From Nitrosopumilaceae archaeon (lineage in GTDB: Archaea > Thermoproteota > Nitrososphaeria > Nitrososphaerales > Nitrosopumilaceae), in NCBI GenBank assembly GCA_965207375.1, contig CBDBMG010000001.1, positions 1-64,000 of the forward strand: a stretch of 64,000 nucleotides of DNA, given 5' to 3'. The position numbers and the translations under genes are program-made. Shown in pieces: positions 6,960 to 48,032 of the stretch (positions are counted from its first letter, which is position 1; each line of letters opens with the position of its first letter). The notes below the pieces were generated by a model, which was given only the letters and a program-made list of their open reading frames with translations, was not told the origin of the DNA and did not search any database.

Positions 6960-7240
6960 ACACAGATCATGCTATAAATTGTCCAACAGGCGGTTATCCT
7001 ACTATCAGGTATATAATAAACTTAGAAACTTTACTGCTGCTCTTCTTTCAGAAGTATGTAATGACGTCAGCATTGAGCCCCACTTACAGCCCCTTACTGG
7101 TGAACAATTTACCTTCTTTTTAAAGAGATTAGCATCCCTAGTTGCTGACAAGAAAGACCTGCCATATTATACTACGTATGATGTCCTGGCTTAGATGTCT
7201 TGTTAGTTATTCACTGTTGTGCTCTGCTATTGACTGTTTA
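6960..7240 (+). mobile_element. Relic of a CRE-like (restriction-like endonuclease) non-LTR retrotransposon C-terminus
   Basis: Peptides CPTGGYPTIR, KLRNFTAALLSEVCNDVSIEPHLQPLTGEQF, FLKRLASLVADKKDLPY and SWLRCLVSYSLL across frameshifts and an internal deletion. Confidence 0.7.
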
Positions 7241-7264
7241 TGAAAAAGTAATAAACTGAAAAAA

Positions 7265-7339
7265 GGCAGCAGAGATGAGATTCGAACCCACATCCTCCAG
7301 AACGACAGCCTTGGATCCTACCACCTACTCCACACTACA
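7265..7339 (-). pseudogene. Degenerate tRNA-like sequence (tRNA pseudogene or SINE head)
   Basis: Minus strand has an A-box-like TGGAGTAGGTGG, a B-box GGTTCGAATC in a T-arm-like stem, then a T run. No clean anticodon arm. Confidence 0.45.
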
Positions 7340-7776
7340 TCGCACTTGAAATTACCTATTTTAATTTGTTTTATTAATACAAATTACGGTATGTGTAAAT
7401 TGCGCTAATTGTACAAAATAATCTACGATACTAAACTGGCAAACATACACTATCAGTCAGTAGCTATAGCGGTAACTTTTGACCCTGCCCACTTCCAAAA
7501 ACATTCCTACTCCACTGATAAATGAACTGGAAAGCTCTAGAGCAAACACATACAGTACTGCATGGCTGGTGAGTGATAACTATAGCTATCCACTAATTGT
7601 TTTCCGATCAGACCTAACTGACTCCGTGACTCCATTTTAAATTTATTTTATTGGAGCCGGGGGCCCGGGAATGGCCAATATCTAAATACTTAAACCGGCC
7701 AGACAATTCTCATTCTTCATCTGACAATTTTATGGCAGGTGTAAAAACGTCATCTTCATACATTATGAGCAATTGA

Positions 7777-7855
7777 GCATGCGCAATCAAAAATCACGTG
7801 ACTATCGGTTATTTGCATAAGATGAATCCATAGAAATACACGTGGGCTATATAAT
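7777..7855 (+). promoter_or_regulatory. Putative proximal promoter of gene 1
   Basis: TCACGTGAC (7794-7802), ATTTGCAT (7811-7818), a second CACGTG and TATATAA just upstream of ATG 7901. The first two motifs recur upstream of gene 2. Confidence 0.45.
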
Positions 7856-7900
7856 CCACCAGAATATTTAATCGATCAGTGTACGAGAGAACTGAGTGAA

Positions 7901-7988
7901 ATGTTATTTATACGATTTGTCCTTTTGACATTATTGTCATGTGTTGACCGTTGCTATAGTGAGAGAACCGGCTTCCTTCCTGGACACG
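7901..7988 (+). CDS. Gene 1 exon 1, signal peptide
   Basis: MLFIRFVLLTLLSCVDRCYSERTGFLPGH + G|GTAAGT; same length (88 nt) as and homologous to 53473-53560; phase 1 fits the acceptor at 14530. Confidence 0.8.
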
Positions 7989-8328
7989 GTAAGTTCTGCA
8001 TTCATTATATACAGTTAGCTGGTTAGTTGTATGCATACATGTGCCAAATTTTGCCAGGCCGGCATCTCATCATCGCCCGCCGCATCACTCACCGCCCCAA
8101 CTTTTAGTGTATTTAAAAATTTCTTTGTTTTCAGATTGTGGAAATTCAATTTTCAGTCCCAACTCAGTATAAATTTTGTGCATTGGTATCCAAAATAACA
8201 AAATAAGGAGATTTTGGATTTTTTGTGAATCAGGTAGCTAGCTATAAAAAATTTTAAAATATACGTAAGACTTTACAAGGTGTTGTAAAATGTGGGCCCA
8301 ATTTTGAGGGTCAGTCACTCTTCCTCAG

Positions 8329-8468
8329 TAGTTTCGTGAACCAGACCACTTTCTTTCGGGTGGCGCTTATCGATTGGAGATTATAAGCACCCCTACCGAA
8401 AGTAGGGGCGCTTATAATCTCCAATCGATAAGCGCCACCCAAAGAAAGTGGTCTGGTTTACGAGACTA
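8329..8468. mobile_element. 140-bp fully palindromic MITE, Academ(H)-like
   Basis: TAG..CTA termini, near-perfect hairpin over its whole length, 9-bp TSD CTTCCTCAG/CTTCCTCTG; terminal motif shared with 45373-46716. Confidence 0.8.
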
Positions 8469-9081
8469 CTTCCTCTGTAATCATGTGTGAGATTTCGAAA
8501 TCAGCTCTTATTTCTTGATTTTAAATCTGATTTCAGTGATTTGAAAGCGTCACCGGCATTATGCATGAGATTTGTCAGGTGATCTATGTAATTATATTTG
8601 AAAGGTATCAATTTCTGGAAATATCAATATGACCAAGTTTATGAGTTGCGAGTCAATGGATAGTGACAGACCCTTGGGACACATATGTTTCAGATCCACC
8701 AGCTCCTACATTGCTATGCTTCACCGCCTAAATTTGGATGATGTCATGCCTATTCCCACCATTATTGCATCATTTCAACATGCTATTTTAAAATTTTATG
8801 CAAGTAGCTAATTACGTAGCTGTGTATTAAATAGAAGTGTACACTATACTGACACAACAATTCAAAAACTGTAGTACATTTTGAATAATATGAATACTAA
8901 AGTACATTTTACTTCTGTACAAAAGTTCACTATTTAATAATCAAGATTGTAATGAATAATGAGCCCACCCACCCGGGGTAACTTCCTGATCTGAAACGTA
9001 TAATTAGCAATAAGTAGCCTAATGTTTGACAAGATATTTTTAGAAATTTTGCCCAATAGAGTACAATATAGCTAGCTAAGA

Positions 9082-9617
9082 TTTAACCAGATGTGCACCA
9101 GCCAAAGGCTGGCATGTGCCTGGTTCTTTGAAACTGCTTTCATCTGAGAAGTCAGTATGTGTGCTTGTGTCTGTGAGGGTGTCCCGTCCCCAGGCTATTA
9201 AAACCATTCAAACCAGAATAACCGATCAAACTGTGACAAGTCTACTGCTTTTCAGTTTCTTTATGACACTTGCTATCAATATAACTGATGGTTGTGGCCT
9301 TAGTAACAAAGCGTGTCATGAATTGATGCCAAAGAAGAGCATAATGCTGTATTTCACAGTAAAAGGCATTTACTCAGCTGTACATTACTAACAAGACAGA
9401 GCACTTCAGTCTTAAAAGTGGGCGTCCTGTACAGATTGTGAAGAAAACTGACCTAAGTATAAAACCAGTTTAAGCAGAAGAATGTTATGTGTTCCTTAAT
9501 GGTGAGTCTTTGCTCATGTGACTTACTTGTGACATCATTAAATACTATTACCAGTAGATTAACAGTGGTTTAACGTTCACAGCACCTGGTTTTTAGATGG
9601 TAAAGCCTCAACTTGTT
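9082..9617 (+). mobile_element. Helentron-associated (HINE/DINE-1-like) element, family C
   Basis: 5' AACCAG..CCTGGTT hairpin, TG-rich tract, 3' ACCTGGTTTTTAGATGGTAA..CAACTTGTTT; colinear with 45210-47204. Confidence 0.65.
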
Positions 9618-10642
9618 TGGTTGGCCATTTGTTAAAAATTCTAACCCCATTAAAACTGTGTGGTAAATTTGTTCAACTAAATTAGATTATTAGATTTGAT
9701 TTTCCAAATGCTTTAATTGGTCAGAAATTAGCTAATGGCTGACTGTTATATTATACTCTGACAAAAATTTTACACTATACACAGTACGTGCAAATCAAAG
9801 CAATATTTGCAAATGATCATGCATATCAGATTTTTTAGTCTGATATGTGATAATTGGGCTTATTTTCATAATTAATGAAGCTATATTGTCTATGCCTCAT
9901 GTGGCCAAAACTTTTTGGGGGTATAGGTAGTTTGACGTGCTGTCATAATAGGTAAGTCATGAATACTAGTAATAGTCTATCATGTAAGTACGTATATTTT
10001 ACCTAGTAAGGAATGAAACCATTTACCTGAAGGAAATTTTCATGGTTTAGTAAGTTGTTATAATAAATATGATTAATTAAGGTAGCACTAAAAGTGAGTA
10101 GCAACAGTGGTAATCTCTACATGGTTTATTCCTTTTATAGTAAAGTAAATTTCAGCTATTATACAGGGCCATAGCCACCAACTTTGGAGTCATCAGGTTG
10201 AATTTTCTGCACAAAATGTAGCTGAAAGTGCTCACTACCTAGATGATATGTTACTGGCCTAAAAAGCCATGAGTAATAATTTATACCTATTTCTGTGCTT
10301 AACAAGAAGGTAAACTTATTTACTCACTAACCTCATTCAATTACTGCATCAAGATTTATTGCTCAGTTAAATATATTAAATACAACACCATTTATTTCAC
10401 ACATTTGTGTCTTCATTTTTTTATTTGAACAAGTACTGTAACAGTTTCTGACTATAAAAGGTACTGGATCAACATGATAAGCTTGTATACCTGCCACTCA
10501 AAGCAAATTACTTGTTCTAATACATTATTGTTTATTGGTGTTTTACAAGTGTTTACTTGACTGGTAACCAGACCAGCATAGGTGGTCAAGTTAAAATCTG
10601 ACCAACCTAACTGGCGGCTACAGCCCTACAAATCAATAGTGA

Positions 10643-11530
10643 TCAAGACTCACAATAGTTAGTCGCGAGGCCAAGAAGTAGCAACCGTTCAGTAAGTTAT
10701 ACATAATGCCACTCAATAATTTACAAATCCTGAGCTAAGCCACCATAAAACTATATCACTGCTTAGTTATTGCAGAGCTAGAGCATGTTCCTACTAGCTA
10801 TATAGAATCAATAACTGATGATAAAGGAATCTGGCACCACCTAAGTACCAGCTATTACAAGTTTTATGGTATTCATTTGTGCAACTATGCCCAACGAATC
10901 ATTGTTTTCCACTAGATTTGCTTGTTACTCGAGAATTTAGTACTGTCTTTAATGAATCGAAGAATCAGTAACCCAAAGTTCATTGAAATCACTTCGGCCA
11001 GTTTTTTCTAGTTCCTATAAAGTCATCATCAAATTACACGCTGGTTGTTTTTTTCTTTTTATTGCACACTTTTCGTGGGCTTGTTTGAATCCTAGGATTG
11101 TTATTTTCAATTTTTCATTCTATCCATCACGTTTGTTTCTCTATTACTGAATTCACTCATTCTGTCAATGATTTTTACTAGACTTGACTCAATCAGCATT
11201 CTCCTATGTATGTATACTCTACAAGTCCAACAAAATGTACAGTAAATAATTATAAGCAGCAAGCACTTCAGTATACTTGAAAGAAATTTTTACAGAACTA
11301 GAGCATATAATTGTTTTGCATAAAAGTTTTAGACACAAACTACATCAACATTTTGAAATTGTGACATGTGAGTTTATCAAAACAATTATTAAGGATTATG
11401 TGCCGTAATTAGATATTGAACAGTTGTAACATTAAACAATTAAACAAATACATGTCATCCACAATCCTCCTGGCCACTGTTCTGTTTCTTCACCTACAAC
11501 AATTCATACACATGTTACAAAAACAAGATT
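10643..11530 (+). mobile_element. Family A element, diverged copy
   Basis: TCAAGACTCACAATAGTTAGTCGCGAGGCCAAGAAG start; internal TTGCACACTTTTCGTGGGCTTG; 3' part resembles 2220-2400. End approximate. Confidence 0.7.
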
Positions 11531-15969: not shown

Positions 15970-16844
15970 GTAAGTTATATCATCTTTTATTGTATGTAGA
16001 TGATTGTTAATGTATCTGTCACGTGAAATGATGGCAGATGGAATTTTAACCAAGACAGTGGCAAGTAATGACTGGATGACTGTTGCTCTATTATCAAAGA
16101 GTAATTCCATTTGCCATCATGCGGTGTGAACAAAGTTTGCAACTATAATGAAATTGTGTGACCTCAGTACAGATGTGCCAGCATGCTACAACAGCTGTAA
16201 TCTATTGCCATAGTTACAGTGCATGTATTTTGTTACCACTAATAATCGCATAGCTTGTATATATTGTCCCATTATTAGCAATGCAATTAATCCCAAATTG
16301 TACAGTTTTAATAGCCTTGGGCGTAACAATATTCAGTTATTGCACTCTAAAATAGCCAATCAAATTTCCACAATGCAAGAAGCCATTTAAATGCAACAAG
16401 CAATTATGTAATAAGCAGCAAGTAACAGTTACTGACTGAATGAGTACTCCATAGTCCATAGAAGAGTTTCTCAATGCTATCGTTTTATACTCAATTCTGA
16501 ATGCACTGCTACTAAAACAAGCTAAGAAACAAACAGGATATGCAACCATGCCTCAGATTGCGTGCCTCAAGTTAGAGTGGGCATCATAGGTCATGCTGTG
16601 TGATTAGTAGACAATCACACGTATTTTTGTGCAATTCAAGAATAATTGTACAAGTAACAGCATACAGTCAAAATTGCACTTGGTGTCACCTCATACAATT
16701 ACTTGACTGTTACTGGCATGGTAGCTACTTATTCTTGAATTGCACTCAAATTTAGGTTGTTTCTCCATATAAAAGTCACAAAATACGTATACAAATACTT
16801 TGAAATACATGTACTATTGTCTAAATATATATAATAGACAACAC

Positions 16845-18020
16845 AGGTACTGTAGGTACTGTGGGTACTGTAGGTACTGTAGGTATTGTAGGTACTGTAG
16901 GTAATATAGGTACTGTAGGTACTATATGAACTGTAGGTACTATAGGTACTGTAGGTACTGTAGGTACTGTAGGTACTGTGGGTACTGTAGGTACTGTAGG
17001 TACTGTAGGTACTGTAGGTACTGTAGGTACTATGGGTACTATAGGTACTGTAGGTACCGTAGGTACTGTAGGTACTGTGGGTACTATAGGTACTGTAGGT
17101 ACTGTGGGTACTGTAGGTACTATAGGTACTGTAGGTACTGTGGGTACTGTAGGTACTGTGGGTACTGTAGGTACTCTGGGTATTGTAGGTACTATAGGTA
17201 CTGTAGGTACTGTAGGTACTGTGGGTACTGTGGGTACTGTAGGTACTGTAGGTACTGTGGGTACTGTAGGTACTATAGGTACTGTGGGTACTATAGGTAC
17301 TGTAGGTACTATAGGTACTGTAGGTACCGTAGGTACTGTAGGTACTGTAGGTACTGTGGGTACTATAGGTACTATAGGTACTGTAGGTACTGTGCATGGG
17401 TACTATAGGTACTGTAGGTTCTGTGGGTACTGTAGGTACTGTAGGTACTGTTGATATATTGTAGGTACTGTGGGTACTGTGGGTACTGTGGGTACTGTAG
17501 GTACTGTGAGTACTGTGGGTACTGTAGGCACTGTGGGTACTATAGGTACTGTGGGTATATTGTAGGTACTGTGGGTACTGTGAGTACTGTGGGTACTATG
17601 GGTACTGTAGGTACTGTGGGTACTATAGGTACTGTAGGTACTGTTGGTATATTGTAGGTACTGTGGATACTGTGGGTACTGTGGGTACTGTAGGTACTGT
17701 GAGTACTGTGGGTACTGTAGGTACTGTGGGTACTATAGGTACTGTGGGTATATTGTAGGTACTGTGGGTACTGTGGGTACTGTCGGTACTGTGGGTACTG
17801 TAGGTACTGTGGGTACTGTAGGTACTGTGAGTACTGTGGGTACTGTAGGTACTGTGGGTACTATAGGTACTGTAGGTACTGTAGGTACTATAGGTACTGT
17901 AGGTATTGTCGGTACTGTGGGTACTGTAGGTGCTGTAGGTACTGTGGGTACTATAGGTACTGTAGGTACTGTAGGTACTGTTGGTACCCATGGTACTGTG
18001 GGTACTGTAGGTACTGTGGG
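16845..18020 (+). repeat. 9-bp minisatellite (GGTACTGTA variants)
   Basis: Directly visible tandem units; degenerate continuation to ~18400. Confidence 0.95.
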
Positions 18021-18633
18021 TAAACACATTGTTAACAAAAATGCCAACTATAAGATGTCAGCTGTGTTTGATCAAAATACCGTGAAATACTGAATACCGT
18101 TTTGAATTTGTAATACCATATATTGGAAAAATATTGATACCGCCCAACACTATCTACAGTACCTACAGTGTACTATAGGTACTATAGGTACTGTAGGTAC
18201 TGTGCATGGGTACTGTAAGTACTATAAGTACTGTGGGTACTATAGGTACTGTAGCTATTGTAGTTGGTATTGTAGGTACTATAGCTATGTACTGTAGCTA
18301 GATACTATAGGTACTATACTGGTACTATAGGAGTACTATATGGATACTGTAGATATACCGTGGGTACTGTGACAATGTGGTTAGATACTGTTGGTAGCTA
18401 CTGTAAGTGTCCAATAATAATTATGCAGATGTGGCTATAATTAGTGTCCATTCTATTGCTGTTTTTGTTTACAGTATTGGTGTCATGTGTGCATATGCTG
18501 TGTCAAACCTATCAGCATGATAAATTAGTTGGTTTTATTTAGCCATACAGCAGTTTCAGTAATATGTTTTATTGGTTTACCATTTTAAATCAGTCTATGT
18601 TTTTGTTATTAATACAGTATATTAGTGATGAGT

Positions 18634-20441
18634 ACACAGTACCTACAGTACCCACAGTAACTACAGTACCTATAGTACCCACTGTACCTACGGTACCTAC
18701 AGTACCTATAGTACCTACAGTACCTACAGTACTTACAGTACCTATAATACCTATAGTACCCACAGTACCTACAGTACCTATAGTACCCACAGTACCTATA
18801 GTACCTACAGTACCTATAGTACCTATAGTACCCACAGTACCTACCGTACCCACAGTACCTATAGTACCCATAGTACCTACAGTACCTACAGTACCTACAG
18901 TACCCACAGTACCTATAGTACCCATAGTACCTACAGTACCTACAGTACCTACAGTACCTACAGTACCTACAGTACCCACAGTACCGACGGTACCTACAGT
19001 ACCTATAGTACCTACAGTACCCACAGTACCTACAGTACCCACAGTACCTACAGTACCTACAGTACCTACAGTACCCACAGTACCTACGGTACCTACAGTA
19101 CCTATAGTGCCTACAGTACCCACAGTACCTACAGTACCCACAGTACCTACAGTACCTACGGTACCTACAGTACCTACAGTACCTATAGTACCTACAGTAC
19201 CCACAGTACCTACAGTACCCACAGTACCTACAGTACCTACGGTACCTACGGCACCTACAGTACCCACAGTACCCACAGTACCTACAGTACCCACAGTACC
19301 TACAGTACCTATAGTACCCACTGTACCTACGGTACCTACAGTACCTATAGTACCTACAGTACCTACAGTACTTACAGTACCTATAATACCTATAGTACCC
19401 ACAGTACCTACAGTACCTATAGTACCCACAGTACCTATAGTACCTACAGTACCTATAGTACCTATAGTACCCACAGTACCTACCGTACCCACAGTACCTA
19501 TAGTACCCATAGTACCTACAGTACCTACAGTACCTACAGTACCCACAGTACCTATAGTACCCATAGTACCTACAGTACCTACAGTACCTACAGTACCTAC
19601 AGTACCTACAGTACCCACAGTACCGACGGTACCTACAGTACCTATAGTACCCACAGTACCCACAGTACCTACAGTACCCACAGACCTACAGTACCTAGCT
19701 ACAGTACCTACAGTACCCACAGTACCTACGGTACCTACAGTACCTATAGTGCCTACAGTACCCACAGTACCTACAGTACCCACAGTACCTACAGTACCTA
19801 CGGTACCTACAGTACCTACAGTACCTATAGTACCTACAGTACCCACAGTACCTACAGTACCCACAGTACCTACAGTACCTACGGTACCTACGGCACCTAC
19901 AGTACCCACAGTACCCACAGTACCTACAGTACCCACAGTACCTACAGTACCTACAGTACCTATAGTACCTACAGTACCCACAGTACCTACAGTACCCACA
20001 GTACCTACAGTACCTACGGTACCCACAGTACCTACAGTACCTACGGTACCGACAGTACCTATAGTACCTACAGTACCAACAGTACCTACAGTACCTATAG
20101 TACCTACAGTACCCCCAGTACCTACAGTACCTACAGTACTCACAGTACCTACAGTACCTACAGTACCTACAGTACCTATAGTACCTACAGTACCCACAGT
20201 ACGTACCCACAGTACCTACAGTACCTATAGTACCTACAGTACCCACAGTACCTACAGTACCCACAGTACCCACAGTACCTATAGTACCTATAGTACCCAC
20301 AGTACCAACAGTACCTACAGTACATACGGTACCTACAGTACCTATAGTACCTACAGTACCTACAGTACCCACAGTACCTATAGTACCTACAGTTCCTATA
20401 GTACCTACAGTACCTATAGTACCTACAGTACCCACAGTACC
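18634..20441 (-). repeat. 9-bp minisatellite in opposite orientation (ACAGTACCT variants)
   Basis: Directly visible; contains a 639-bp higher-order duplication. Confidence 0.95.
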
Positions 20442-20532
20442 TGTGTTATCAAAATTTTACCAATTAATGGCTCATGTAATCATCAAAGTTCTATCAAATA
20501 CTTCCACTGTCTTAATAATGACACAGCTACTG

Positions 20533-20750
20533 GTATATAGCTATAGCTAACTGTATTAAGTATCTAGTATATAGCTATAGCTAACTGTATTTAGTATATA
20601 GCTATAGCTAGTATATAGCTATAGCTAACTGTATTAAGTATATAGCTATAGCTAACTGTATATAGCTATAGCTAACTGTATTAAATATATAGCTATAGCT
20701 AACTGTATTAAGTATATAGCTATAGCTAACTGTATATAGCTATAGCTAGC
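20533..20750. repeat. TAGCTA-rich minisatellite (TATATAGCTATAGCTAACTGTATTAAG variants)
   Basis: Directly visible tandem units of about 20-27 bp. Confidence 0.9.
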
Positions 20751-21825: not shown

Positions 21826-22703
21826 TTAGCCACTGATCAGTGATGTGATCCATTAACTATAATAATCAGCTAATAGAGGCTGGCCTAGCTATAGTTTTTC
21901 AAACTGGTGATGGCCTCTAATTAACAGCTATAGTATAATATAAGTACCGAGCTGTTGTGCCTTGTAAAACTGCAACTAAAGAATTAGAACTACATGCCAG
22001 CCAGCTTATTAAAAGAGCTACTAACCAAACATGATATAGCTATAATTTATACTGACCAAGCTAATTAAATTATTGACCAATTTATTGGCTAATTTATTGT
22101 TAGAAACCACATAAAATCTGATTGGCTAAAAATGTCAGGTCATGCAACTACACATATAACATTAAATTCGGACCACACAGCAGGCTGAATGGCTATATGT
22201 AGGCTACATAGGAAGTTCAAATGAATAAAATATCGTTAATTGTGTGGCCAGAACAAGAAGTGCAGATTTTTTTCAATTGCAAGTTATTTATGTCCCTAAG
22301 TGATAATACATTGGTAGAGCTCAGGCTTAGCTGTTGAAAGCTACATATCAAATAACTTTTCGTACAAACTTTCAACTGAAATGATCATGTCTCGGATCAT
22401 GTACCATTTTGATATGTAAAATTCCGTATTCTATAGTGCATCTGATAGGTTTCACCTCGCAACTATCGAGTTGATTGCCAGAATTGTGGAGTTGGATCAA
22501 GATGGCTCGTCTAGCTATATACTTGTTAACAGCATTATATCTAGCGTGATTTTTGTAGTTTACTAAGTAGCCTGAGGTATATTGCGAGGTAGTTTATTGT
22601 GACAGCCGGGGGGGTCAGTAACGAGACAAAATCGATTTGAAAGTTGGGTTAAATTTCCACATGAACTTAAATTGTTCTATTATAAGCGCGCCTTTGTAAT
22701 TAA

Positions 22704-24268: not shown

Positions 24269-24955
24269 GTAATTAACGCCATAACGAAATTTAAATCCTG
24301 CCCCGGCTGCAAAAGCCAAGCAGTTTTCCGCATGCCAAATAATTGTGTTTGTGCATTAATACCCTTGCTACAACACTGATGGTAATTGATTAATCAGTGA
24401 ATCTATAGAGTCTAGCACATCCGAAGTTTCCTAGGACATATAGCTATACTTAATTAAGGAGTAAACTTCACAAAATTTATATTTCTGAGTGAAGTAGTAT
24501 GTATAACTTCCTTGATCCCCTGACAAAACCTAAGCCCCCTGTATCCTAGTTCTAGAATTATCACTGGTTTTTACACGTATAGCTACACCTTAAAATGCTA
24601 CTAGTTTGATTATACCATGTATAAGGGCTCTCTCTGCTTAAAGTGTGTGTCATGTTATATCATCTTGATAACACAGTGCATGGTTAGCCCCCTCGCCTGC
24701 CACCTCAGTCAAAAATACAAAAGGATGGATATGTTGTTAGAACACTAATTCTTGTCCATTTAATTGCATAACAATTTATACTAAAGGGTAGCTATGCGTT
24801 GAATTAAATATACTCTAAATCTGGCATTTCTGTACTTTACAAAATAGAACATCCCATAGCTTCTGAGGGCTACACCCCATAGCCCCTGCTTTAGAGATCC
24901 ACTGTACTAGCTGTGCTTAGCTCCCCTCTCTAGATCTGCCTATGGCTGAGTGGGA

Positions 24956-26520
24956 TCAAGACTCACGATAGTGAGTCGCGAGGCCAAGAAGAAGCAGGCC
25001 GTACGTGACAAACGAGTGAGTTATTTACACGTAGCACCGCTCTGAAATTTGTAAACACTCTAAATAAGGCACCATGATAGCTATCGCTTAGTTATCAAGG
25101 ACTCAGCATGTAAGTACCAGCCATTACGAGTTTTATGGCACCCGATTGTGTGCCCACGCTCGAAAAACCATCCCCTTGGCACCTATTCACTCGTTTACTA
25201 AACAAATAGTACCTTCAATGTATGAAGAATTGTTGACCTGAAGCCATTTGATATCCATGATACGAGTTTTCCGTACGCGCCTTATAAACTCCTTCCTGTC
25301 ATCAAAAATATTTTAGGCGACTGTCGTTTTTTTCCTTCTTTCATTTTCATCACACACTTTTCGTGGGCTTGCGTGATCCCCCGGAATTTATAATTGAAAC
25401 ACTCATTTAGTACATACACTTGTTTGTCTAATAAATCACTCATTTCTGCATGGATTTCAACCAAATTTGTATCAACACTTCTCCTATGTATGCTCTACAA
25501 AACAAACAACTTTCAGCATAAAGCAACAACCTTAATATATTTGAGAGATACTTTTACATTGCATGCTGATAGTTTCCATAACTTGGAACCCCTTATAATG
25601 ATTGGAATAAAATTTCAGATACACAAACTATATTGATATATGAATCTTCAGGATAAGTTTAAAGAAATTATGACACTTCAGTTTGTGAAAATTAGCCTTT
25701 AATGATTACATTCATGCTTATGTACCATGCAAGATAATTATACCAAACAACAACAGGTGAACAGTGGCCACACATTATAAATAGGAGACCACTGTTCTGT
25801 TAGCATACACAAATTTTATTCATATTGTCTTCTCCTGTAGATCAATCAACAGTACTAGTAGAGGATGGCAATGATGTAGCCTTCATTGAAGTTCTCAACT
25901 GTTCTCCACCTACATAGCTAACAATTATAGTAATAACACATACTTTATATGTTCATTAGCTACTTGGGGGAAATACAAGGGAAACACCTAAAGTATTACC
26001 TTGCTCCTCTCTCCTTTAAAAGTTTATTACTCTGCATACTTTATATAAGGTTTCTTGTCAGGACTAGTTTATAATTGTAATCTGTTTACAAAAGGCAGTA
26101 CTAGTGATATGCTAAACAAAAACAGCCTGGCTGTAAAAAGGTGCGAGGCCAATCAGAAGCCACAATGGTTATAAGTGACCAAAAACTCTGATTCAAGTAA
26201 GGCCAAGAAGTTGAACATTTTATTATGAATCCTTTTACTTGAATGACATACAATAATGTACAGGGCATTTTCACAACTATGATTGGCTTTGTCACTTGGC
26301 CACCTTTTTACACTTAATAAGGTGGCCAAGTGACAAAGCCAATCATAGTTGTGAAAATGCCCTGTAAATTATTGTATGTCATTCAAGTAAAAGGATTCAT
26401 AATAAAATGTTCAACTTCTTGGCCTTAGCTACTTGATATCAGAGTTTTTGGTCACTTATAACTATTGTGGCTTCTGATTGGCCTCACACTTTTTTACAGC
26501 CAGACTGTTTTTGTTTAGCA
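24956..26520 (+). mobile_element. Family A element, full length (~1.56 kb), ending in a ~410-bp hairpin (26109-26521)
   Basis: Absent from the duplicate (empty site GGGA|TAACC at 32041); filled site GGGA-TCAAG...TTTAGCA-TAACC; second full copy at 61642-63274. Confidence 0.92.
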
Positions 26521-27274
26521 TAACCTATACTTCATGAATTTTTGATCATATAGCCCTTTCTGTCTCATTCACAAACTAGCTATGGGGAAATACATTATGT
26601 AGTGAATGATGGAGGTTATAAAATATGGATCTAACTAGATATAAAATCTATAAAGTCTGGGGGGTTGAAACCCCCAGGGTACCTGACCATGGCACTGAGG
26701 GATACTAGTTTGCCAGTGAATAAGTCTTGCGATTAGCAGTGCAGCCTCTATTAAAATATCCTTCTTTTCTTTCCACAGTTAAGGGGTTTATCACAAACAC
26801 TACACTATGTATATCCCACTGTAAACCTGTGAGAAGGCTTATATATATAGCTTGTTGACAGGGATGCAGAAAAATCATGTCACGATACTCTTAATCAGTA
26901 TGCACTTTACACATGCAGTCTGCTATACACCAGACTACATATTATGAAGACAGGCCATACTGGAACAAAATTGAACAAAAATTTATTACATTATATAATT
27001 ATGTGATCTGTTAGACTACACCCACTGAGAATAACCTTCAAAGCATAGTGCATGAATGCCTTCCCTATACAATATCTCTGTGGTGCTTAGCCCTATTGAA
27101 GCACATTTAAATGCTGGGCTTCAGTTTATGGCAATATAAATTTTGTTCTACAATGTCTACAGTGAATGGAAAAGAATGACAGTGAACTTGAACATACTAT
27201 GCATCATGTTCATTAATGTCTTGCATAATAAGTAAAATAGACTGTACATGAGCTTGTGCATGATATTTTTATAG

Positions 27275-27350: not shown

Positions 27351-28018
27351 GTATAGTCAAAATATTATTATTTCATTATTTAGTTATAAAATTTGTATTT
27401 ATAAACATAGGAACACACTCTGGTAATGACTAATACAAAAATATCCATCAAAAGTATGTAGTTATAGCTAGAATTTAAAAAAATCTTGTGCCAGTGTTAT
27501 TCCATATATCCTACTGCATTTTCCTTGGAATTTTAGGCATGGGGGTTAGGCATGGGAGAGACAAGGTAGGCAAAGGACACTAGAAAAATAAAGAAGAGGC
27601 AATGATAAAAATGACTAGATAGGCATGAGAGTAGCTACATAGCTATATACTTGGAAAATATGTGGGTGAAAGAACAAAAAAGTACAATTAATGTTTACTG
27701 ATTGAAAAGGACCAAAAAGGCTATTTTTAGAAGTAGAATATTGGAAGTCACCAATGATAGGTTATGTATCCTTACTGGTGAGTTAGCATCTACATTGTGT
27801 AATGCATAAAGCTATAGCTACGTAGGTATATACTAACATACTGATGGTACAAGCATAAGATGTAATAGCCGCTTGTGATTAACATATATCATATGCTTAT
27901 GTACCTTCTTTAACTCTCAGACACCTTTAATTACATTATTTTCATCTTTTCAGTTGTTTCACATAGCTAGTTACCATCCCTATTTCCTTAGTGTATAGCT
28001 ATACACAGTAATTTATGC

Positions 28019-29295: not shown

Positions 29296-32200
29296 ATCTA
29301 CAGCTATATATTAACCACTGATCAGTGATGTGATCCATTAACTATAATAATTAGCTAATAGAGGCTGGCCTAGCTATAGTTTTTCAAACTGGTGATGGCC
29401 TCTAATTAACAGCTATAGTATAATATAAGTACCAAGCTGTTGTGCCTTGTAAAACTGCAACTAAAGAATTAAAACTACATGCCAGCCAGCTTATTGAAAG
29501 AGCTACTAACCAAACATGATATATAATTTATACTGACCAAGCTAATTGAATTATTGACCAATTTATTGGCTAATTTATTGTTAGGAACCACATGAAATCT
29601 GATTGGCTAAAAATGTCAGGTCATGCAACTACACATATAACATTAAATTCGGACCACACAACAGGCTGAATGGCTATATGTAGGCTACATAGGAAGTTCA
29701 AATGAACTGATAAAATATCATTAATTGTGTGGCCGGAACAAGAAGTGCAGATTTTTTCAGTTGCAAGTTATTCATGTCCCTAAGTGATAATACATTGGTA
29801 GAGCTCAGGCTTAGCTGCTGACTTTCAACTGAAATGATCATGTACCATTTTGATACGTAAAATTCCGTATTCCATAGTGCATCTGATAGGTTTCACCTCG
29901 CAACTATCGAGTTGATTGCCAGAATTGTGGAGTTGGATCAAGATGGCTCGTCTAGCTATATACTTGTTAACAGCATTGGATTTAGTAAGTTTTTGGTTAT
30001 ATCTAGCGTGATAGTTTTGTAGTACACTAAGTAGCCTGAGGGATATTGCGAGGTAGTTTATTATGGCAGCCGGGGGGTCAGTAACGAGACAAAATCGTCG
30101 ACGTAATTTGAAAGTTGGGTTAGATTTCTTCAAATTTCACAATGAACTTAAATTATTCTATTATAAGCGCGCCTTTGTAATTAACGCCATAACGAAATTT
30201 AAATCCTGCCCTGCAAAAGCCAAGCAGTTTTCCGCATGCCGAATAATTGTGTTTGTGCATTAATACCCTTTGCGTAGTTCTACTGCTGGGAGTGAGGCCG
30301 GGAGTTTACTGTTTAGAGACTCAGATTTTCGAACGGTTATCCCCTCAAGTTACTTGGTTATTGTAGAGCTAGCTAGCCAGCCATTGCACTATACCTAGCA
30401 ATGTGGAACACACAGAGACACTGACACACACATACACAGTTCAAACAGCCGGACTCTTCCTGTGAAAGCCATAGCTATGGCTATAGCTACGGCGCACGTG
30501 CAGTGCATGATGGCCAATCAATAATAGCTATAGGTACAGTAAAGTATCTGTTTGACTCATATCATCTAGGCTACAAAGCCTCACACCTCACCTTGCACAA
30601 AACCTTCATATACTTCATGATTCCGTGCATAATGTAAGCGTAAGTCCCCTGTGCACTCACTCTTGCAAGTCTGACAATCAGCAGCCATCTTGGTAGCTGT
30701 TAAAGCATGTGGTAACTAGCTAGCTATATTCTAGTACACGTGATATATTGCTAACTATGCTTTAGCTAGTAAGTATCTATAGGTATATAGGTATATGTAT
30801 ATAGCTAGCATTATAACATATATAGCTATGTAAAAGATTCATACATGATAAGTAACATGTCACTGAATATAGGTATAGCCTCTGTATAACGGCGTCTGAA
30901 CTGATATCAACCAACTAGCTGTAGCTATATACCTGCTACAGAGCTAGATATAGCTGGAATTTCAGCCTCCTATTAGTCTGCTTTAATTGCTAGGACTTTG
31001 AAAATTATAGCTTTTGGTACTGAGGACCCAAAAATATCTTGTAAGTCTGGCCTGTCCAGCAGTGGTGATTCTGCATGTGGAGAAAAGCAAAAGAAAACCA
31101 TTCAAATATACGCAGCTATTTAACTAATTTAGCTGATAATGGTAACCATATTTGTTAAAGTCTATTACTGGCCTTGATTCATAGACCTTTATTATAATTG
31201 AGATGCATATTTGAAGTCAGATTTCAAATTTCTAATTTCAAGCCAAATTTCAGATTTCAGAAATAAATTTCACAAGGCATTGACAAAACTTCAGGTTGTT
31301 ACTGACCCTTTGGTGGCAGCTAGGCAGCCGGCTATATAGAATCAAGGGGGCGGCGACACAATCAATTCTCTTTTACCATAGGTGATTTTAAGGGGTCTGG
31401 GGTACAGCCCCCCACCCCTGCCCTGTCGAAAATAAGTTGTGAAAAATCTTACAGTATAGCTACAACACTGATGGTAATTGATTAAGCAGTGAGTCTATAG
31501 AGTCTAGCACATCCGAAGTTTCCTGGGACATATAGCTATACTTAATTAAGGAGCAAACTTCACAAAATTTATATTTCTGAGTGAAGTAGTATAACTTCCT
31601 TGGTCCCCTGACAAAAACCTAAGCCTCCTGTATCCTAGTTCTAGAATTATCACTGGTTTTTATACGTATACACCTTAAAATGCTACTAGTTTGATTATAT
31701 CATGTATAAGGGCTCTCTCTGCTTAAAGTGTGTGTCATGTTATACCATCTTGATAACACAGTGCATGGTTAGCCCCCTCACCTGCCACCTCAGTCAAAAA
31801 TACAAAAGGATGGATATGTTGTTAGAACACTAATTCTTGTCCATTTAATTGCATAACAATTTATACTAAAGGGGTAGCTTTGCATTGAATTAAATACACT
31901 CTAAACCTGGTATTTCTGTACTTTACAAAATAGAACATCCCATAGCTTCTGAGGGCTACACCCCATAGCCCCTGCTTTAGAGATCCACTGTACTAGCTGT
32001 GCTTAGCTCCCCTCTCTAGATCTGGCTATGGCTGGGTGGGATAACCTATACCACTCTACTTCATGAATTTTTGATCATATAGCCCTTTCTGTCTCATTCA
32101 CAAACTAGCTATGGGGAAATACATTATGTAGTGAATGATGGAGGTTATAGAATATGGATCTAACTAGATATAAAATCTGTAAAGTCTGGGGGGTTGAAAC

Positions 32201-35177: not shown

Positions 35178-35236
35178 GTAAGTAAGATTTTTGTTGTTTT
35201 CCTTGTTATAATGAATTGGGACCTATATTTCTTTAG

Positions 35237-35980: not shown

Positions 35981-36350
35981 TAGCCTGGCTGAAAAAGTGT
36001 GAGGCCAATCAGAAGGAGCATTATCAAATGGTTATAGGTAACCAAAAACTTTGATATCAAGTAGCTATGGCCAAGAAAGTAAAATTAATCCTAAACAAAA
36101 ACAGCCTGGCTGTAAAAAAAGTGCAAGGCGGCATTGTATCAAGTGACAACCAACCAAAGACTTTGATATCAAGTACAGCCAAGAAGGTAAAACTTTTTGT
36201 TAAAAATCCTTTCACTTGAATGATATAGCTACAATAGTTTGTAGGACATTTTCACAACTATGCACTTGACCACCTTTATAAATAATGGATGGTACAAAAA
36301 GGTGGCCAAGTGACAAAACCAATGATAGTTGCGAAAATGTCCTGTAAACT
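35981..36350. mobile_element. Solo, partly duplicated family A hairpin
   Basis: Two tandem left-arm starts (35981, 36091), loop and partial right arm GGTGGCCAAGTGACAAAACCAAT. Confidence 0.75.
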
Positions 36351-37880
36351 AGTATATTTACCCTGTAAAGCAATGAAGAGTCATAAAAGAGCCTGTGGGG
36401 TCACTGAAGGGCATTATTAATGTGGCATGGGGTGCCAAGCAGCTCCCTATGTCCACCTCAGCTTGTGCTATGGTCTGGGTCCACTATGATCAACTACTAA
36501 ACATATCATGCAGCTTGGCTGCCTCTGTCTACTGGCAGTTATAACCAACCCACCATCACCCTCTCCACCCCCTTCCCACCTGTTCTCCCCTTATATGCAA
36601 CGTTCATGATATTCCGGAAGCCTCTCAAAAATCAATGATTTCAACTAGCTGCCAACTTTGTTCATATAATGCTACGTAGGTATGTATAAAACTAGTCTGC
36701 TTTGTTGCAAATCTAGAGTGATTATATACAATTAAGCATACAGTGTCTTGAATAATTAAAATTGGTATTTGTGACAATATAGCCAGTTTTCAGGCACAAA
36801 CAGTACAAGATTAACTGTGATGCATAGCCACACTGAACTCACCATATCATGAAGCAGCTACAGTAAAACTCAACTAAACTGCTACTGTTCTGGGCTTTGT
36901 ATTGTTAATTTACTGGATTGTAAGTCAGTGTGAAAATAGTCTGCATTAGCTATACATCACTGATCCTTTAAATAGCTCTCCTGTGTGTTAGCACATTACA
37001 GTATAACCGATTTTCCAACATACAAACTATATTCTGTATAAGCAACAATGCAGTCAAATGATTGGTGTGCTATAGTTAGCATTTATCCTAAGGTGATCAT
37101 GAGAGTGGCTGATAGCCATTAATGTGATATACATGGATAGTCACTTTACTGAATTTTTTGAAAGTTTGTTCATATATAGAATAGTTGCATAAATGGCTAA
37201 TTAATTACTTCCGTGTAGCAAAATTGCATGCTTTGTTATATGAGTATTTCATCAGTAGAAGTTTTGTTACAATGCCTCTAAACATTGCTATGTTAGCAGG
37301 AGGCAAGGAGGAAGGTACGTATAGTAGAAACATGTAGCTAGAGTGGATAGATTTCATTTTCACAGTCAGCGAATTATTGCTAAGTATTAGCAGGTTTTGT
37401 GTTGGCAGCAAAATCCTTTTCCCTTGAATAGAGTGAGTGACATTAAGAGAATGCTAAGATGATGGTATTGGGCAGTAGCTACATACTTAACATTTCATTG
37501 GCAAAGCTATGTATGTTACAGCTTTGTTTAGAGAACGTGACCTTTGATGATTTAAGTAGAGCACTTGTTCTTGTTGGATACAGTAGAACCACTCTGAATT
37601 TAAGTGTCTTTTGCCATAGTATTTCCCAACCACCTTCCTGTTATTTTTAAAAAATCAGTACCGAATTTATGTCAAAAGAATAATTATAGCTAACAGACAG
37701 CTGAACTACAGCAAAAATTGAAATCATGCCACTCTTTTTATTTGCCACACGCAAGTTGTTTTACATCATGTTTGTGACGTGTTTGCAACCACTCTGTACA
37801 AGAAGCAATTTGACGATTTGTCTGTCTGACTTATTTAATTACTCTTGTTTTGTTTTTAATTAATTAATTAATTTTATTAG

Positions 37881-38195: not shown

Positions 38196-38765
38196 GTAAG
38201 TGAAATTTCCATATTTTCATTCATACGTAGTAACATACAATTAATATACAAGTCAGTCTCATTGCATAATTTCATTTCAATGATATAAGAAGTGAAATAT
38301 TGACAACTTTACTGAAATCTGTGTTATCAAGTGGTAATGAGTTACACAGCCAAGTAGCTAATTAATTCATGCATAGTCATAAAGCATGCCACCACCACAA
38401 TGAGTATTACAAGCATGTAATAAAACACCAAACTGAATTGTTACTAAACCTTTTAGCTAAATACTGGGCTCCATAAAACCACTTACCAGTAATCTTCACT
38501 ATGTCTTCCAACCTAGGATGTTAATCCTTTTCTAGCTTCTACTTATATGGATTCTATAGGACATTCTAAGTCTAGACCTGTCACTGGTTTTTACAAAAGT
38601 TTCTTGACATAAATAGTATCATGCACTTATGATATAGTTTGGTCATTCTCTAAATCAATTTTGTGGGTTCAGACTGAACCATCGCTATAATATTATATGG
38701 CTCATGTATCCTTGACTAATTAAGGTGTGAGTTTTATATTTTACATTAGCTAATAGCATTGAACT

Positions 38766-42580: not shown

Positions 42581-42597
42581 ATTTGTGTTGTTTGCAG

Positions 42598-43867: not shown

Positions 43868-44747
43868 CAGGGGCGTGCCGAGGGGGGTTTCCAGGGGTTT
43901 CAGGAAACCCCTATGGATTTCACCAAGTACTAGAAAATTATTTAATAAGTAGACTTCAGTTTATGATTCAATACAAATCATCATTATAAATATAGCAACA
44001 TTTACTATTATAACTTACAGCTTGTAGGCCTTCATCTAACTGAGGCACACATAAGCCTTCCCTTCAATGTTATAAGGTGAGCTCTAATTAGAATCGCGCA
44101 CGTGCAGGTTGTACTATTTGAGATGAAAACGCAGGCAGACTTTATTTGGCTGTAACTTTATCAGGGATAAATACAGGTAATTACTTTAATACTACCTAGT
44201 GGTATAGAAACTATATAATAGTAATTATTTTCATAGTCTAAGGTTAATTATACTATACCTCTACATACAACTGTGGCAGTATTAATATACTTGGAATTTC
44301 CTTACGTACTACGCGCTAGGTGTCTTTCTAGGGGTTTCTTTCAATATTTCTTATAAGCATCTTGTAGTTGTAAATAAACTGGATTGTTAAGAATTTGCAT
44401 TACTAGCTGTAATCCCTGCATATACGTACTTCCAAATGTCCAATGATAACCCTAAATCATAATATATTTTCAGTAAAATTGATAGCCCTTTGCAAGCCCT
44501 TTAGTTTAACTCCTTAGATATGTTTAGTCATAGCCATAGCTGTTTACTGTACTTCATATACCTATAGCTAAAATAAATGCTACTTAAAAAGAAACAACTG
44601 TGTAAATTTTACTGTTAAAATTTACTACAAGATCAAAATGCAATTATATAAAGTTCGTCAGCGGCTGGGGGCTGCGCCCCCAGACCCCCGCGTCTTGGAT
44701 CTACAACCAGTGGAAACCCCTTTCAAAAAATCCTGGGTACGCCCCTG
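43868..44747. mobile_element. hAT-like element (CAGGGGCGT termini)
   Basis: CAGGGGCGTGCC / GGTACGCCCCTG; 6-bp TSD TCTGCT. Confidence 0.8.
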
Positions 44748-44799
44748 TCTGCTATATGTACCAAGTACCCACTGCCAAGTAAATGATTAGTTGCTCTAA

Positions 44800-44878
44800 G
44801 AGTTTGCTACTGCAGGTTTTTATAAATGCTTGCTAAATAATTTAGCAAGCATTTATAAAAACCTGCAGTAGCAAACTC
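44800..44878. repeat. Perfect hairpin, 38-bp arms and 3-nt loop
   Basis: GAGTTTGCTACTGCAGGTTTTTATAAATGCTTGCTAAA-TAA-reverse complement. Confidence 0.92.
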
Positions 44879-45372
44879 ATCGAAGGTATGATATTTGAGC
44901 AACTTTACATGCAAAAATCTTTAAACGATAAATTGTTTATGTAAGGTAAAAAATCAATAATGACATTGATACGGTATCATCGATTATTGCAATATGGATA
45001 AAATATATTGCACATCATTACCAATTGGTGTCCTCTATAGGAACCATTTTTTTAATTGTGACATCACAGGTCGGCAAGATGCCCTCCAGAAAAGCAGACC
45101 GATTCATATTGGACAATAGAGACCGAGGGGTCCTTCGTTCTTTGAAATGTCATTGATCAACTCTAAAATTTATTTGAAATGTTTTGAAATTCTGAAATTC
45201 GAAATCTTATTAAACCAGGCGCGCGCCGGCCTGCCGAGCCTGGTTTCTTAAAATCACTTCAGTGCGGATGTCTGTGTGTGTCCGCCCCCCGGGCTATTAA
45301 AAACTATTCACGTGAAATAAAGTCTGAATAACCTATCAAACAAGTCCTACTGCCTTTCACTCTGTACGGCAC

Positions 45373-46716
45373 TAGTCTCGCGTAGCCAGACCCTTGTAAT
45401 AGAATAAGGGTCTGATGACTCTGGTATACGGCACCTGTGCAAATGGATGCAATTATTCATATAAATAACGTAACTTTGCGCGAGACATTATTAAACATGG
45501 CTTCTATTTACTGTGGTAGTACGGCCGATGATGTTCCTTTGTTCTGCGTAGATGTAGAACGCGTAAAACATCTTGTTCTAGGAGAAACACTAGTCACCAC
45601 AGGCAGATTTTGAGTCGGTAATGATAGACGAAATTGAACTACTCTACTCTCTTGTCTGGCTTTAGGCAAGAAATCTAGCCACTTTATAACCAGCGCGCTC
45701 CACATCTTCATCTGCCGCTGCCATTATTACATGGAGTGTGACATAATTTACGCGGTTTTCGTCATAATAATTCAATTTAAACAAATACTGCGATTTGATT
45801 GGTACTGCCACTGGGAAGTGATAAAACCTGGACTGGACTCTGGACTGGATTCTGGACTGGATTCCGTGCTGTAAATGTGATGTTTGCTTGATTTCTGATT
45901 TCTAGCCAGTAATTTCTGGCAGAGTGTACGAGATTTCAGTTAGTGTCCGACCCCTCGTTGCACCCGTAATATAGCTAGGCATGCTGCGTTGGGAGAATCT
46001 TTCTGCATGTGTAATGAAGCCTTCAGAGTCGAGATGATGAGTGCCTCATGACGGCATCCGATTGACAAGCGCTTGGTTTCTTGTGAGTACTGAAGTTGCA
46101 AAAGATGGGACCTAGAGGGGTGGCTATAGAGCACCTCAACTTTTTAGCTTTCCACCTGGTATATATAGGGCCTAGGTAATGACATAGCTACTATTTATAA
46201 CATAAAAATCAAAATAGACTTTTTGTTAAGGTCCATGCATGCAGAGCAAACTCGAGGGGAGGGGCTGCTTGCAGTAATTGGGTGGTCTATTCTATAGATG
46301 CTCTGTCCCTCTACTTTTAACTCTATAGCCCCACCCCTCCAGTCTCCACCTTCTGCAACTTACGCACAAAACTAACTACGCCAGACTTTCCGGGCAAGCG
46401 TACGTATGCTTGTAGCTACGTATGTCAATCAGATTGTGAGGCACTCATCATCTCCAAAGGCCTCCTTGCCCCTAATCTATGAGGTATGTTCAACCAACAT
46501 ACCTAGCTATAGCTAGACCTATTAGGTACAAAAATCATATTTACAACACGGAGTCCAGAATCCAGTCCAGAATCCAGTCCAGAGTCCAGTCCAGGTTTTA
46601 TCACTTCCCACTGCCACTATAGTGGCAGTAAACACAAGTAGTACTAGCTAGAGTCGCCAGACCCTTGTATCAGCGCGCGGCGCGATCTATTACAAGGGTC
46701 TGGCTACGCGAGACTA
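45373..46716. mobile_element. AcademH-like non-autonomous element
   Basis: Perfect TIR TAGTCTCGCGTAGCCAGACCCTTGTAATAGA; 9-bp TSD GTACGGCAC. Confidence 0.85.
45813..46609. mobile_element. MULE-like MITE, innermost of the nest
   Basis: TIR GGGAAGTGATAAAACCTGGACTGGACTCTGGACTGGATTCTGGACTGGA; 9-bp TSD ACTGCCACT. Confidence 0.88.
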
Positions 46717-47704
46717 GTACGGCACTTGCTATCGATACTGTTGATGGACGGGGCCTTAGTTACGAAGCGCGTCGTGTGTTACTGCCAAAGAAGAGCAAGG
46801 TAACGCTGTATTTGCCGTTCATTACACGGTAAAAGCCGTTTAACCAGTTGTACATTACTAACAAGACGGAACTCTTCAGTTTTAAAAGTGGGCGTGTCGT
46901 GCGGGTTGCGAAGCTTATAAAAGAAGACTGGCCTATAGTGCTACAGTAAGAATTTCAGCATAAAACAACTTTATACTACTTTCAAAAAGTTTTATCACTA
47001 AAGTACTGGAGTACAAAGCGGGTTTAAACAGAAGAATTAAATTCGCATGCGTTGCTATGTGTTCCTTAGTGATGAGTCTCTGCTCACGTGACTTATTGGT
47101 GACGTCATTAAGAAACTATTATAATACATTGAATAACAGTAGATTAACAGTGGTTTAACTTGCACACAGTACCTGGTTTTTAGATGGTAATACGTCAACT
47201 TGTTTTTGATTATGTTTGGATATTGGAAGTCATTGTGTTTGGGAAATTTAAAATTCAACCTAAATAGTAGCAAATTTTAAATGTTGTTGACAAATTTGAG
47301 GAGTGAAGGACCCCGGTAGAGACACTGTGCATGGGGTTGAGTTTCTCAAAGTTGGGGGCTCTTCCCCTCCAGCTCCCCAGTCCCCATTCCGCTGCCACCA
47401 ATAATAAGAGTTAAAGAAAGTTTAAATACATAGTTTCTAAGATCAAAATTTATCCATTAAATTCCAAAAAGAGTTATAGCCATACAGCCCAATAATTTTA
47501 ATGGCTCGTGTAATCATCTTTAGCTAACTACATGGCTACCTATCAATTAATTGCACTACTATATTAAAAAGACACAGCTACTAACTGCATAAGTAGCTAT
47601 ACAGCTAGCTATTATGAAATTGTCAGTGAAATATTTATAGTGTATAACTATAACTACGTAGGTAATGTAAATGTTGTTAGTAACAGAAATTTTAATTGAT
47701 ATAG

Positions 47705-48032
47705 CAACAGCTCCACCAGTTATTGTTGAGGGACAATGCATACCACAACCAGAAGTTATTCCTAATAATGATGTAACAGTGATGATAGGATCTCCTGCAT
47801 ACATTGCTGATGGATATGATCTCACTATTACTTGTAATATTATTAATGGAATACCTCCAATAAATATTAGTTGGTATCGTAATGGAGTAGTTGATTCATC
47901 CAGAGGAAGCACATCAACTATCACAATATCAAGTGTGGACATTAATAAAGATAATGGTGTAGTCTATAGCTACCTGTAGAGCTGAAAATGATAACGGATA
48001 TGATGAGCAGCTCACTAGTGTTAATGTGTTTG
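47705..48032 (+). pseudogene. Gene 1 Ig domain exon 5, broken by a 4-bp insertion
   Basis: Paralog of Ig3. Removing 4 nt from TAGCTA (47967-47972) restores VYTCRAENDNGYDEQLTSVNVFG|GTAAGT. Confidence 0.85.

Follow-up and report, generated by a model that had tools for sequence, protein, structure and literature searches.

Self-complementary four-base insertions at TA dinucleotides in host-like DNA assembled alongside an archaeal genome

The stretch of DNA analysed here (the window) is the opening 64 kb of C2, one of the four contigs of assembly G000, and it is marked throughout by the hexamers TAGCTA and TACGTA which, at sites where copies can be compared, have arisen from a single TA by the gain of four bases (referred to below as scars). 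Contig C1 (2.16 Mb) is prokaryote-like, with dense long open reading frames (ORFs) and a full-length archaeal small-subunit ribosomal RNA at C1:1850463-1851933. Contigs C2-C4 total 2.14 Mb at 37% G+C with a CpG observed/expected ratio of 0.50, and carry the ORFs of eukaryotic elements (gypsy-type, Helitron, hAT, MULE, pogo-like (DDE_1) and THAP+DDE_Tnp_4) together with immunoglobulin (Ig)-like exons and an IgGFc-binding-like gene family. The window is therefore animal host DNA which has been binned together with the genome of a symbiont, the assembly as a whole being a mixture, and C1 serves as an internal control; judging from the labels of the symbionts, the host is probably a sponge. A search for allelic contigs across 400 genomes from the family to which the archaeon belongs gave none, only low-complexity matches.

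Several repeated features lie in the window. A multi-copy, single-exon ORF family of ~490 amino acids is represented at 56230-57711, with further copies at C2:83349, 126469, 269191, 303231 and 409391; it is grouped by a protein atlas with IgGFc-binding-domain proteins (score 0.96, PF17517), and the atlas clusters of this ORF are described as 'Eukaryota, commonest Mollusca', which is not diagnostic of the host. A non-coding hairpin repeat of 1.65 kb is found at 24955-26521 (minus strand) and 61641-63275 (plus strand), with ~75-85 copies in C2-C4, and is organised around a hairpin, each arm ~200 bases long, together with nested palindromic modules flanked by TA. At ~16700-20540 a 9-base unit, CAGTACCTA / CAGTACCCA with variants, is repeated in long arrays; several reading frames stay open there for 500-665 codons, and the arrays raise the TACCTA and TAGGTA counts of the window.

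When hexamers were counted against a Markov background, TAGCTA was found 207 times in the window where 33-45 occurrences are expected (first- and second-order models), and under the second-order model it occurs 5297 times in C2-C4 against 1051 expected, with TACGTA at 2362 against 482. The two rank third and fourth among all hexamers of C2-C4, only the rare CGCGCG and GCGCGC standing above them, and the abundance of TAGCTA claimed in the original prediction is thus borne out, both words lying near the top of the corrected ranking in C2-C4 and in repeat-free DNA. The archaeal contig shows no excess (TAGCTA 236 against 253 expected, TACGTA 318 against 477). Within the 1.07 Mb which have neither a self-BLAST match nor a tandem repeat, TAGCTA occurs 2709 times against 533 expected and TACGTA 1255 times against 244; the 26-base contexts of TAGCTA comprise 4338 distinct sequences, 3887 of them singletons, and 4723 of 5533 TAGCTA lie outside tandem-repeat (TRF) arrays. 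TAGGTA and TACCTA show no enrichment, their ratio in unique DNA being 0.9-1.0, and a milder enrichment in C2-C4 was seen for TATATA, TACATA and TATGTA (~1.8-1.9-fold) and TAATTA (~1.5-fold). By arithmetic on the C2-C4 counts the excess amounts to ~4250 hexamers of the GC type and ~1880 of the CG type, or ~3 per kb, which at four bases each account for no less than 1.1% of the C2-C4 sequence.

The direction of change was read by aligning the 4.3 Mb against itself, with tandem repeats masked, and tallying for each gap the partner copies with and without the extra bases; a change was called derived where at least three partners covered it and at least 66% disagreed with the copy, and events were deduplicated by context and taken from C2-C4 only. 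Derived insertions of one to eight bases number 279, 120, 64, 165, 45, 28, 27 and 17, and derived deletions of the same lengths 371, 103, 71, 47, 33, 22, 30 and 19. The peak of insertions at four bases persists under stricter thresholds (lengths 3/4/5 at 27/84/19 and 16/40/7), and 91 of the 165 events take the form TA to TA-NN-TA, with 18 of the slippage type and 56 others. The bases gained in the 91 are GC (33), CG (30), TG (9), CA (6), TA (6), AT (5), CC (1) and AA (1). The reverse change accounts for five of the 47 four-base deletions, and deletion from an ancestral TAGCTA is accordingly rejected; both the +4 peak of GC and CG at TA and the polarity which the original prediction had anticipated were found. 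Scars borne by single copies are missing from as many as 82 of 90 partners.

Scar-making is recent and still going on. Paralog pairs of at least 97% identity (187 kb aligned, 1443 mismatches) differ by 24 unique four-base indels, amongst which are eight of TA-CG-TA, three of TA-GC-TA and one of TA-TG-TA, the remainder being slippage (eight) or other (four). The description of the process as a dominant mutational force was nevertheless too strong, as TA-NN-TA events make up 91 of ~745 derived insertions of one to eight bases (~12%), and in the youngest pairs the 12 unique events stand beside 1443 pairwise mismatches, two figures which are counted differently.

The form of the scar is narrow. 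The added dinucleotide is self-complementary in 74 of the 91 polarised events and is TG or CA in 15 more, which CpG decay of CG produces, although a direct origin is possible for some. No companion class accompanies it: TA-N-TA pentamers occur at 0.9-1.1 of expectation, there is no peak at +5 or +6, and TA-NNN-TA heptamers are weakly enriched to a degree accounted for by arrays or intact element ends. Palindromic TA-NNNN-TA octamers likewise show no enrichment (TACCGGTA 22 against 12.7, TACGCGTA 10 against 8.5, TAGGCCTA 17 against 27.7). As neither TAGGTA/TACCTA, nor TA-N-TA, nor palindromic +6 words are enriched, the two added bases are complementary to one another, as symmetric element ends predict. 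One octamer, TATCGATA, occurs 95 times in C2-C4 against 28.6 expected and, TA-repeats aside, is the sole palindromic TA-NNNN-TA word with more than a 3-fold excess; this is unexplained.

Scars also occur in chains: TAGCTAGCTA is found 736 times against 5.3 expected, TACGTACGTA 174 times against 1.1 and the mixed TACGTAGCTA 157 times against 2.4. Mixed chains would follow if every scar offered two TAs to the next event, and slippage cannot be the origin of chains made of mixed units. Nor does a single scar resemble slippage, which inserts a tandem copy of the neighbouring sequence; here only the TA is repeated and the gap can be shifted by 2-3 positions. A tandem satellite of ~48 bases with TAGCTAGCTA/TATAGCTAGCTATGAGG is present in 150-167 copies in C2-C4, none of them in the window, and some of its units read TAGCTAGCTAGCTA, which is one further four-base step.

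Two other types of derived +4 insertion were observed. The change CA to CATGCA (TG to TGCATG on the opposite strand) was seen in seven events, at C2:72621, C3:405986, C4:304877, C4:606805, C3:197156, C3:440011 and C4:293429; it is not slippage, since only a dinucleotide is repeated, and is unexplained. Independent changes of T to TCAGT (adding CAGT/TCAG) lie at C2:324312, C3:154652, C3:177176 and C3:445780, and at C4:151259 in a pair of 98.8% identity. CAGT is the usual tip of Tc1/pogo elements, and these insertions are possibly another type of footprint.

The signature is not confined to one assembly. A 2.57 Mb contig of genome G401 (L042/L043), which is labelled as a Candidatus Poribacteria metagenome-assembled genome, matches a 20-base word taken from the hairpin repeat of the window, and all 30 TAGCTAGCTA matches in the 6.1 Mb of G401 are confined to the last 270 kb of this contig, C4. 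In its tail (299,670 bases) TAGCTA occurs 366 times against 99.6 expected (rank 1), TACGTA 196 times against 60 (rank 3) and TAGCTAGCTA 30 times against 0.38, with TAGGTA/TACCTA at a ratio of 1.0-1.1. The tail has only repeats in common with G000, the best match being 2.4 kb at 92%, and shows no allelic overlap; indel typing between the two was left unused because microsatellite alignments dominate. The same signature in a second assembly indicates that it is a property of such host DNA and not of one contig. The end of G401:C4, at least from 2260001 to 2567670, is eukaryote-like (37-40% G+C, CpG observed/expected ~0.5) and holds the same hairpin repeat; the contig is probably chimeric or host-derived. 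A further match of the hairpin word, in bacterial contig L041 (same record as L044), was dismissed as a chance match.

Within the window, the hexamers named in the original prediction are present where it placed them or at most ~20 bases away, the one given at 27650 lying upstream at 27632 or ~27640, and the four-base gain at TA was read against the partner for the pairs 22037/29520, 24580/31668, 27964/34776, 26426/61967 and 27.64 kb/34277. The TAGCTA at 22037-22042 is derived, all three partners being without it (the partner at 29520 reads ...catgatatataattt); that at 24580-24585 reads cgtaTAGCtacacc where the copy at 31668 has cgtatacacc, and that at 27964-27969 reads cacaTAGCTAGttacc where 34776 has cacaTAGttacc. 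An arm of the hairpin repeat bears a derived TAGCTA at 26426-26431, which 70 of 83 partners lack. A second hairpin-repeat site, at 36062-36067, has an independent TAGCTA at the same TA in the copy at C2:72469 (69 of 81 partners are without), and the same TA junctions have been struck independently across copies of this repeat, as at gaatgaca-TA-caatag, for which variants with GC, TG and TA exist. The derived TAGCTA at 36226-36231 is missing from 61 of 67 partners but occurs also in the segmental duplicate at C2:240489, from which it follows that the scar is older than that duplication.

Six derived sites were found beyond those already named. These are TACGTA at 36673-36678 and 38224-38229 and TAGCTA at 38454-38459 and 47594-47599, each absent from three of three partners, and TAGCTA at 49797-49802 (four of four partners without) and 58311-58316 (56 of 58). 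As had been proposed, the derived TAGCTA at 47967-47972, absent from three of three partners, frameshifts an Ig-like exon: ...DNGVVYTCRAENDNGYDEQL runs in a single frame in two paralogs, and in the window copy the frame changes where the four bases were gained. A second TA to TAGCTA change relative to both paralogs lies ~170 bases downstream, at ~48138 in the adjoining non-coding DNA, and reads gtgatagTAGCTActgtc against gtgatag----tactgtc. A retroelement-like ORF (6883-7194) stops just past the TACGTA at 7173-7178; no partner copy was found for this site, and the frameshift ascribed to it in the original prediction was not confirmed. The TATGTA noted at 24498 lies within GTATGTAT at 24497-24504; a four-base gain is indeed present there, all four partners being without it, but the gap can be shifted by four positions and an origin as TA-TG-TA was not confirmed, as GTATGTAT may be a tandem duplication of GTAT. 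TAGCTA at 19696-19701 and TACGTA at 20200-20205 are present in the 9-base tandem array, a region masked from the polarised counts.

Elements which insert at TA are resident in C2-C4. TA-flanked insertions whose empty paralogous site is a single TA have the tips CCGTATAG..., CCGTATACG..., CCGTAAAC... and CGGTACCGCTC..., and TA precedes 59 of 71 CCGTATAG ends, 14 of 14 CGGTACAGCTC, 9 of 9 GGCCTGAGCC and 5 of 5 GGGTCCGCAATG. A 3.2 kb element at C3:379363-382578 contains a pogo-like DDE_1 ORF between perfect inverted ends of 29 bases (TA|CCGTATAGAGGG...), and further DDE_1 and DDE_3 ORFs are present. Families were kept only where there was empty-site evidence or where TA preceded all or most ends; a de novo search for TA-flanked inverted repeats was heavily contaminated by nested TA pairs in hairpins and by palindromic chains of scars, and pile-ups of BLAST-match ends were swamped by microsatellites. 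The 222 TA-preceded ends start with CC (159), GG (35), CG (21), TG (5) and GT (2), none with A, and a four-copy family starting with GC is also present; the five TG ends, the only ones to start with T, look like CpG-decayed CG. At two flanking positions the insertion sites and the scars show the same bias. T is depleted immediately before the TA (position -1), where it stands at 38 of 222 resident ends against a background of 28% (p 1e-4) and at 34 of 182 polarised scars (p 0.002), and A is enriched at -3 in both (93 of 222, p 0.015; 88 of 182, p 1e-4).

We consider it rather probable, on these grounds, that the four-base scars are excision footprints of TA-specific cut-and-paste elements. We infer both that excision is their source and where the transposase cuts. 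In this scheme an element would integrate at TA, duplicating it, and after its excision end joining would rejoin the flanks with both TAs and two self-complementary bases of the element tips retained, giving a net change of TA to TA-NN'-TA, or four bases. The self-complementary dinucleotide suggests that one terminal base is left behind by each element end, and within the excision scheme we prefer this version, since NN' is almost only self-complementary and C or G is the first base of all confirmed elements. Each inverted-repeat end would leave its outermost base pair with the flank, so that elements of the form 5'-C...G-3' would yield TACGTA and those of the form 5'-G...C-3' TAGCTA. This outcome is the observed scar repertoire, and the predominance of CG in the youngest events fits it together with the majority of C-starting elements. 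TACGTA would then decay by CpG mutation to TATGTA/TACATA whilst TAGCTA persists, and as each scar adds a second TA, repeated events would produce chains of TA-NN, the seeds of (TAGC)n and (TACG)n arrays. A variant has a two-base stagger acting on elements which start with CG or GC, whose cohesive overhangs would ligate directly, only these families leaving scars. The tips bear differently on the two versions: the first base is C or G in every confirmed family, which fits if one base per end is kept, whereas a two-base overhang fits only the CG and GC starters (21 ends and the four-copy family) and not the CC/GG majority. Taken to its full extent, the one-base version would mean that pogo-like transposases cut so as to leave exactly one tip base pair with the donor flank, a geometry undescribed for Tc1/mariner/pogo elements, and that every excision writes TA-C-G-TA or TA-G-C-TA; this we put forward only tentatively. 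Were it true, the scars would be at once the genome's most over-represented words, a main source of +4 frameshifts such as that at 47967, and the seeds of (TAGC)n/(TACG)n arrays.

The footprint interpretation, which was also that of the original prediction, should be considered with caution. In its favour stand the resident TA-flanked elements, the C or G with which their families start, and the shared avoidance of T before TA; the link to the scars is circumstantial, and several results weigh against it. Whole flank profiles of element ends and scars are correlated at r 0.06-0.32 (not significant), with control hexamers at r -0.09 to -0.37 (not significant). TAGCTA is not enriched beside resident ends (seven of 222 against 5.6 expected), and nor are the GC, CG, TG and CA hexamers together (19 beside the 222 ends against 15.4 expected, p 0.2). 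No locus with filled, empty and scarred forms, as the original prediction had suggested looking for, was found among 2456 large-insertion junction matches, which were obtained by chaining self-BLAST matches around large insertions, paralogs being a weak substrate for this comparison. TAGCTA or TACGTA lay near 39 of the 2456 junctions, and all of these proved unrelated, for example where one copy had lost 92 bases, or where microsatellites were involved. The excess scars (~6100) outnumber resident ends (222) in the 2.14 Mb by ~28:1, a surplus which requires long accumulation. Under the classical model of two- or three-base overhangs the CC/GG-starting majority predicts TACCTA/TAGGTA or TACCGGTA, and such scars are absent, there being no excess of the words and almost none among polarised events (CC in one of 91). 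Sleeping Beauty and mariner cut three bases inside the element, with a three-base stagger, and leave +5 footprints (PMC7827188, PMC2874221), and no precedent for the retention of one base per end was found or is known to us. As a separate observation, C1 holds ~20 IS630/Tc1-like DDE_3 transposase genes (e.g., C1:288520-288933), many of them intact ORFs of 371 amino acids; as C1 has no hexamer excess, elements of the TA type alone are insufficient for the signature without the host's repair.

The alternative which survives best dispenses with transposons, in that a host nuclease or domesticated transposase would make a staggered break at TA, fill-in would duplicate the TA, and a polymerase would add GC or CG before ligation. 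The surplus of scars over element ends, their lack of enrichment beside them and the missing filled alleles would all be expected under such a break-repair process, as might a form so unusually uniform, at +4 only and without +5 or +6 classes. We nonetheless regard it as unlikely, because independent untemplated addition predicts TAGGTA/TACCTA, and +3 products TAGTA/TACTA, equally often, and none of these is enriched; dinucleotides which are neither self-complementary nor TG/CA appear in just two of the 91 polarised events, and the scars avoid T at -1 as real transposon insertion sites do. We know of no polymerase which adds solely self-complementary dinucleotides.

Programmed removal, during development, of germline-limited elements bounded by TA, which would make the assembled DNA somatic, would account for the very high density of scars and for the uniformity of their junctions. 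Excision in ciliates restores a single TA. Copies of a repeat family here differ in their scars and segmental duplicates share them, as expected of gradual heritable accumulation, and no sign of germline/soma differences was seen in these data; even with TA-bounded eliminated sequences of Tc1/mariner-like origin known from ciliates (PMC3464196, PMC3408717), we consider this explanation very improbable. An artefact of sequencing or assembly which inserts four bases at TA is slightly less credible again: within the same assembly the archaeal contig is free of the excess, segmental duplicates inherit identical scars (C2:36226/240489, 346513/353241, 345688/352411), the second assembly carries the same signature, and seven runs from three studies hold words of the stretch (0.41-0.53 of the sampled words in two studies, 0.05 in the third), a comparison made at the level of words and not site by site. 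That the excess reflects an abundant TAGCTA-bearing repeat family or satellite, for which the ~48-base satellite with TAGCTAGCTA and a TAGCTA-bearing array at ~20.5-20.7 kb of the window might speak, has a negligible probability, as repeats are refuted as a sufficient cause by the undiminished, 5.1-fold TAGCTA excess in repeat-free DNA, by the largely unique contexts and by the preponderance of occurrences outside tandem arrays.

If the scars are excision footprints, they preserve hundreds of thousands of cut-and-paste events as a fossil record that can be counted, and the traffic of insertion and excision could then be measured against a substitution clock. In most genomes such events are invisible because footprints are rare and heterogeneous. 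From the uniform, self-complementary +4 form a specific geometry of cleavage is predicted. If they are not derived from transposons, a TA-specific insertion mechanism which has not been described must be at work. The scars are a class of mutation that frameshifts exons and makes new tetranucleotide repeats, and the signature has a practical use in sorting the contigs of mixed assemblies into host and symbiont.

A literature search on the hexamers, genome-wide footprint signatures and sponges, which did not extend to supplementary files, returned nothing that treats these hexamers as footprints. What is new is the uniform self-complementary +4 form, its top rank among hexamers and the cleavage geometry implied, transposon footprints themselves being textbook knowledge. 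Tc1 of C. elegans leaves TACATA/TATGTA, the footprint of Tc1 and Tc3 being TA, two element bases and TA. The scars described here share with these the TA target, the retention of the duplicated TA, the net gain of four bases and, as proposed, end joining after cut-and-paste excision; they differ in being nearly always self-complementary GC or CG, where Tc1 keeps one overhang of a CA...TG element, and under the Tc1 scheme the CC/GG starters would give TACCTA/TAGGTA, which are not enriched. Palindromic (P-nucleotide) junctions at a double-strand break are also left by hairpin-forming transposases such as those of hAT elements and by V(D)J recombination, but P nucleotides copy the flank, which at TA would give TATATA, and cannot be the source of a constant G/C that the ancestral site lacked. 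In Sleeping Beauty and mariner, too, the elements are TA-specific and tip bases are found between duplicated TAs, and end-joining repair of this kind is proposed here; their footprints, from three-base 3' overhangs, are of the TAC(A/T)GTA type at +5, for which there is no peak in our data (45 against 165 at +4). The retention of element-tip bases between duplicated TAs by end joining after Tc1/mariner excision is described in PMC7827188 and PMC2874221, and the Passer paper gives footprints of 0 to 4 bp. The internal eliminated sequences of Paramecium are likewise TA-bounded, descended from Tc1/mariner elements and removed at very high density. Excision in Paramecium is precise and somatic, whereas the DNA studied here carries a heritable scar of four bases in an animal genome.

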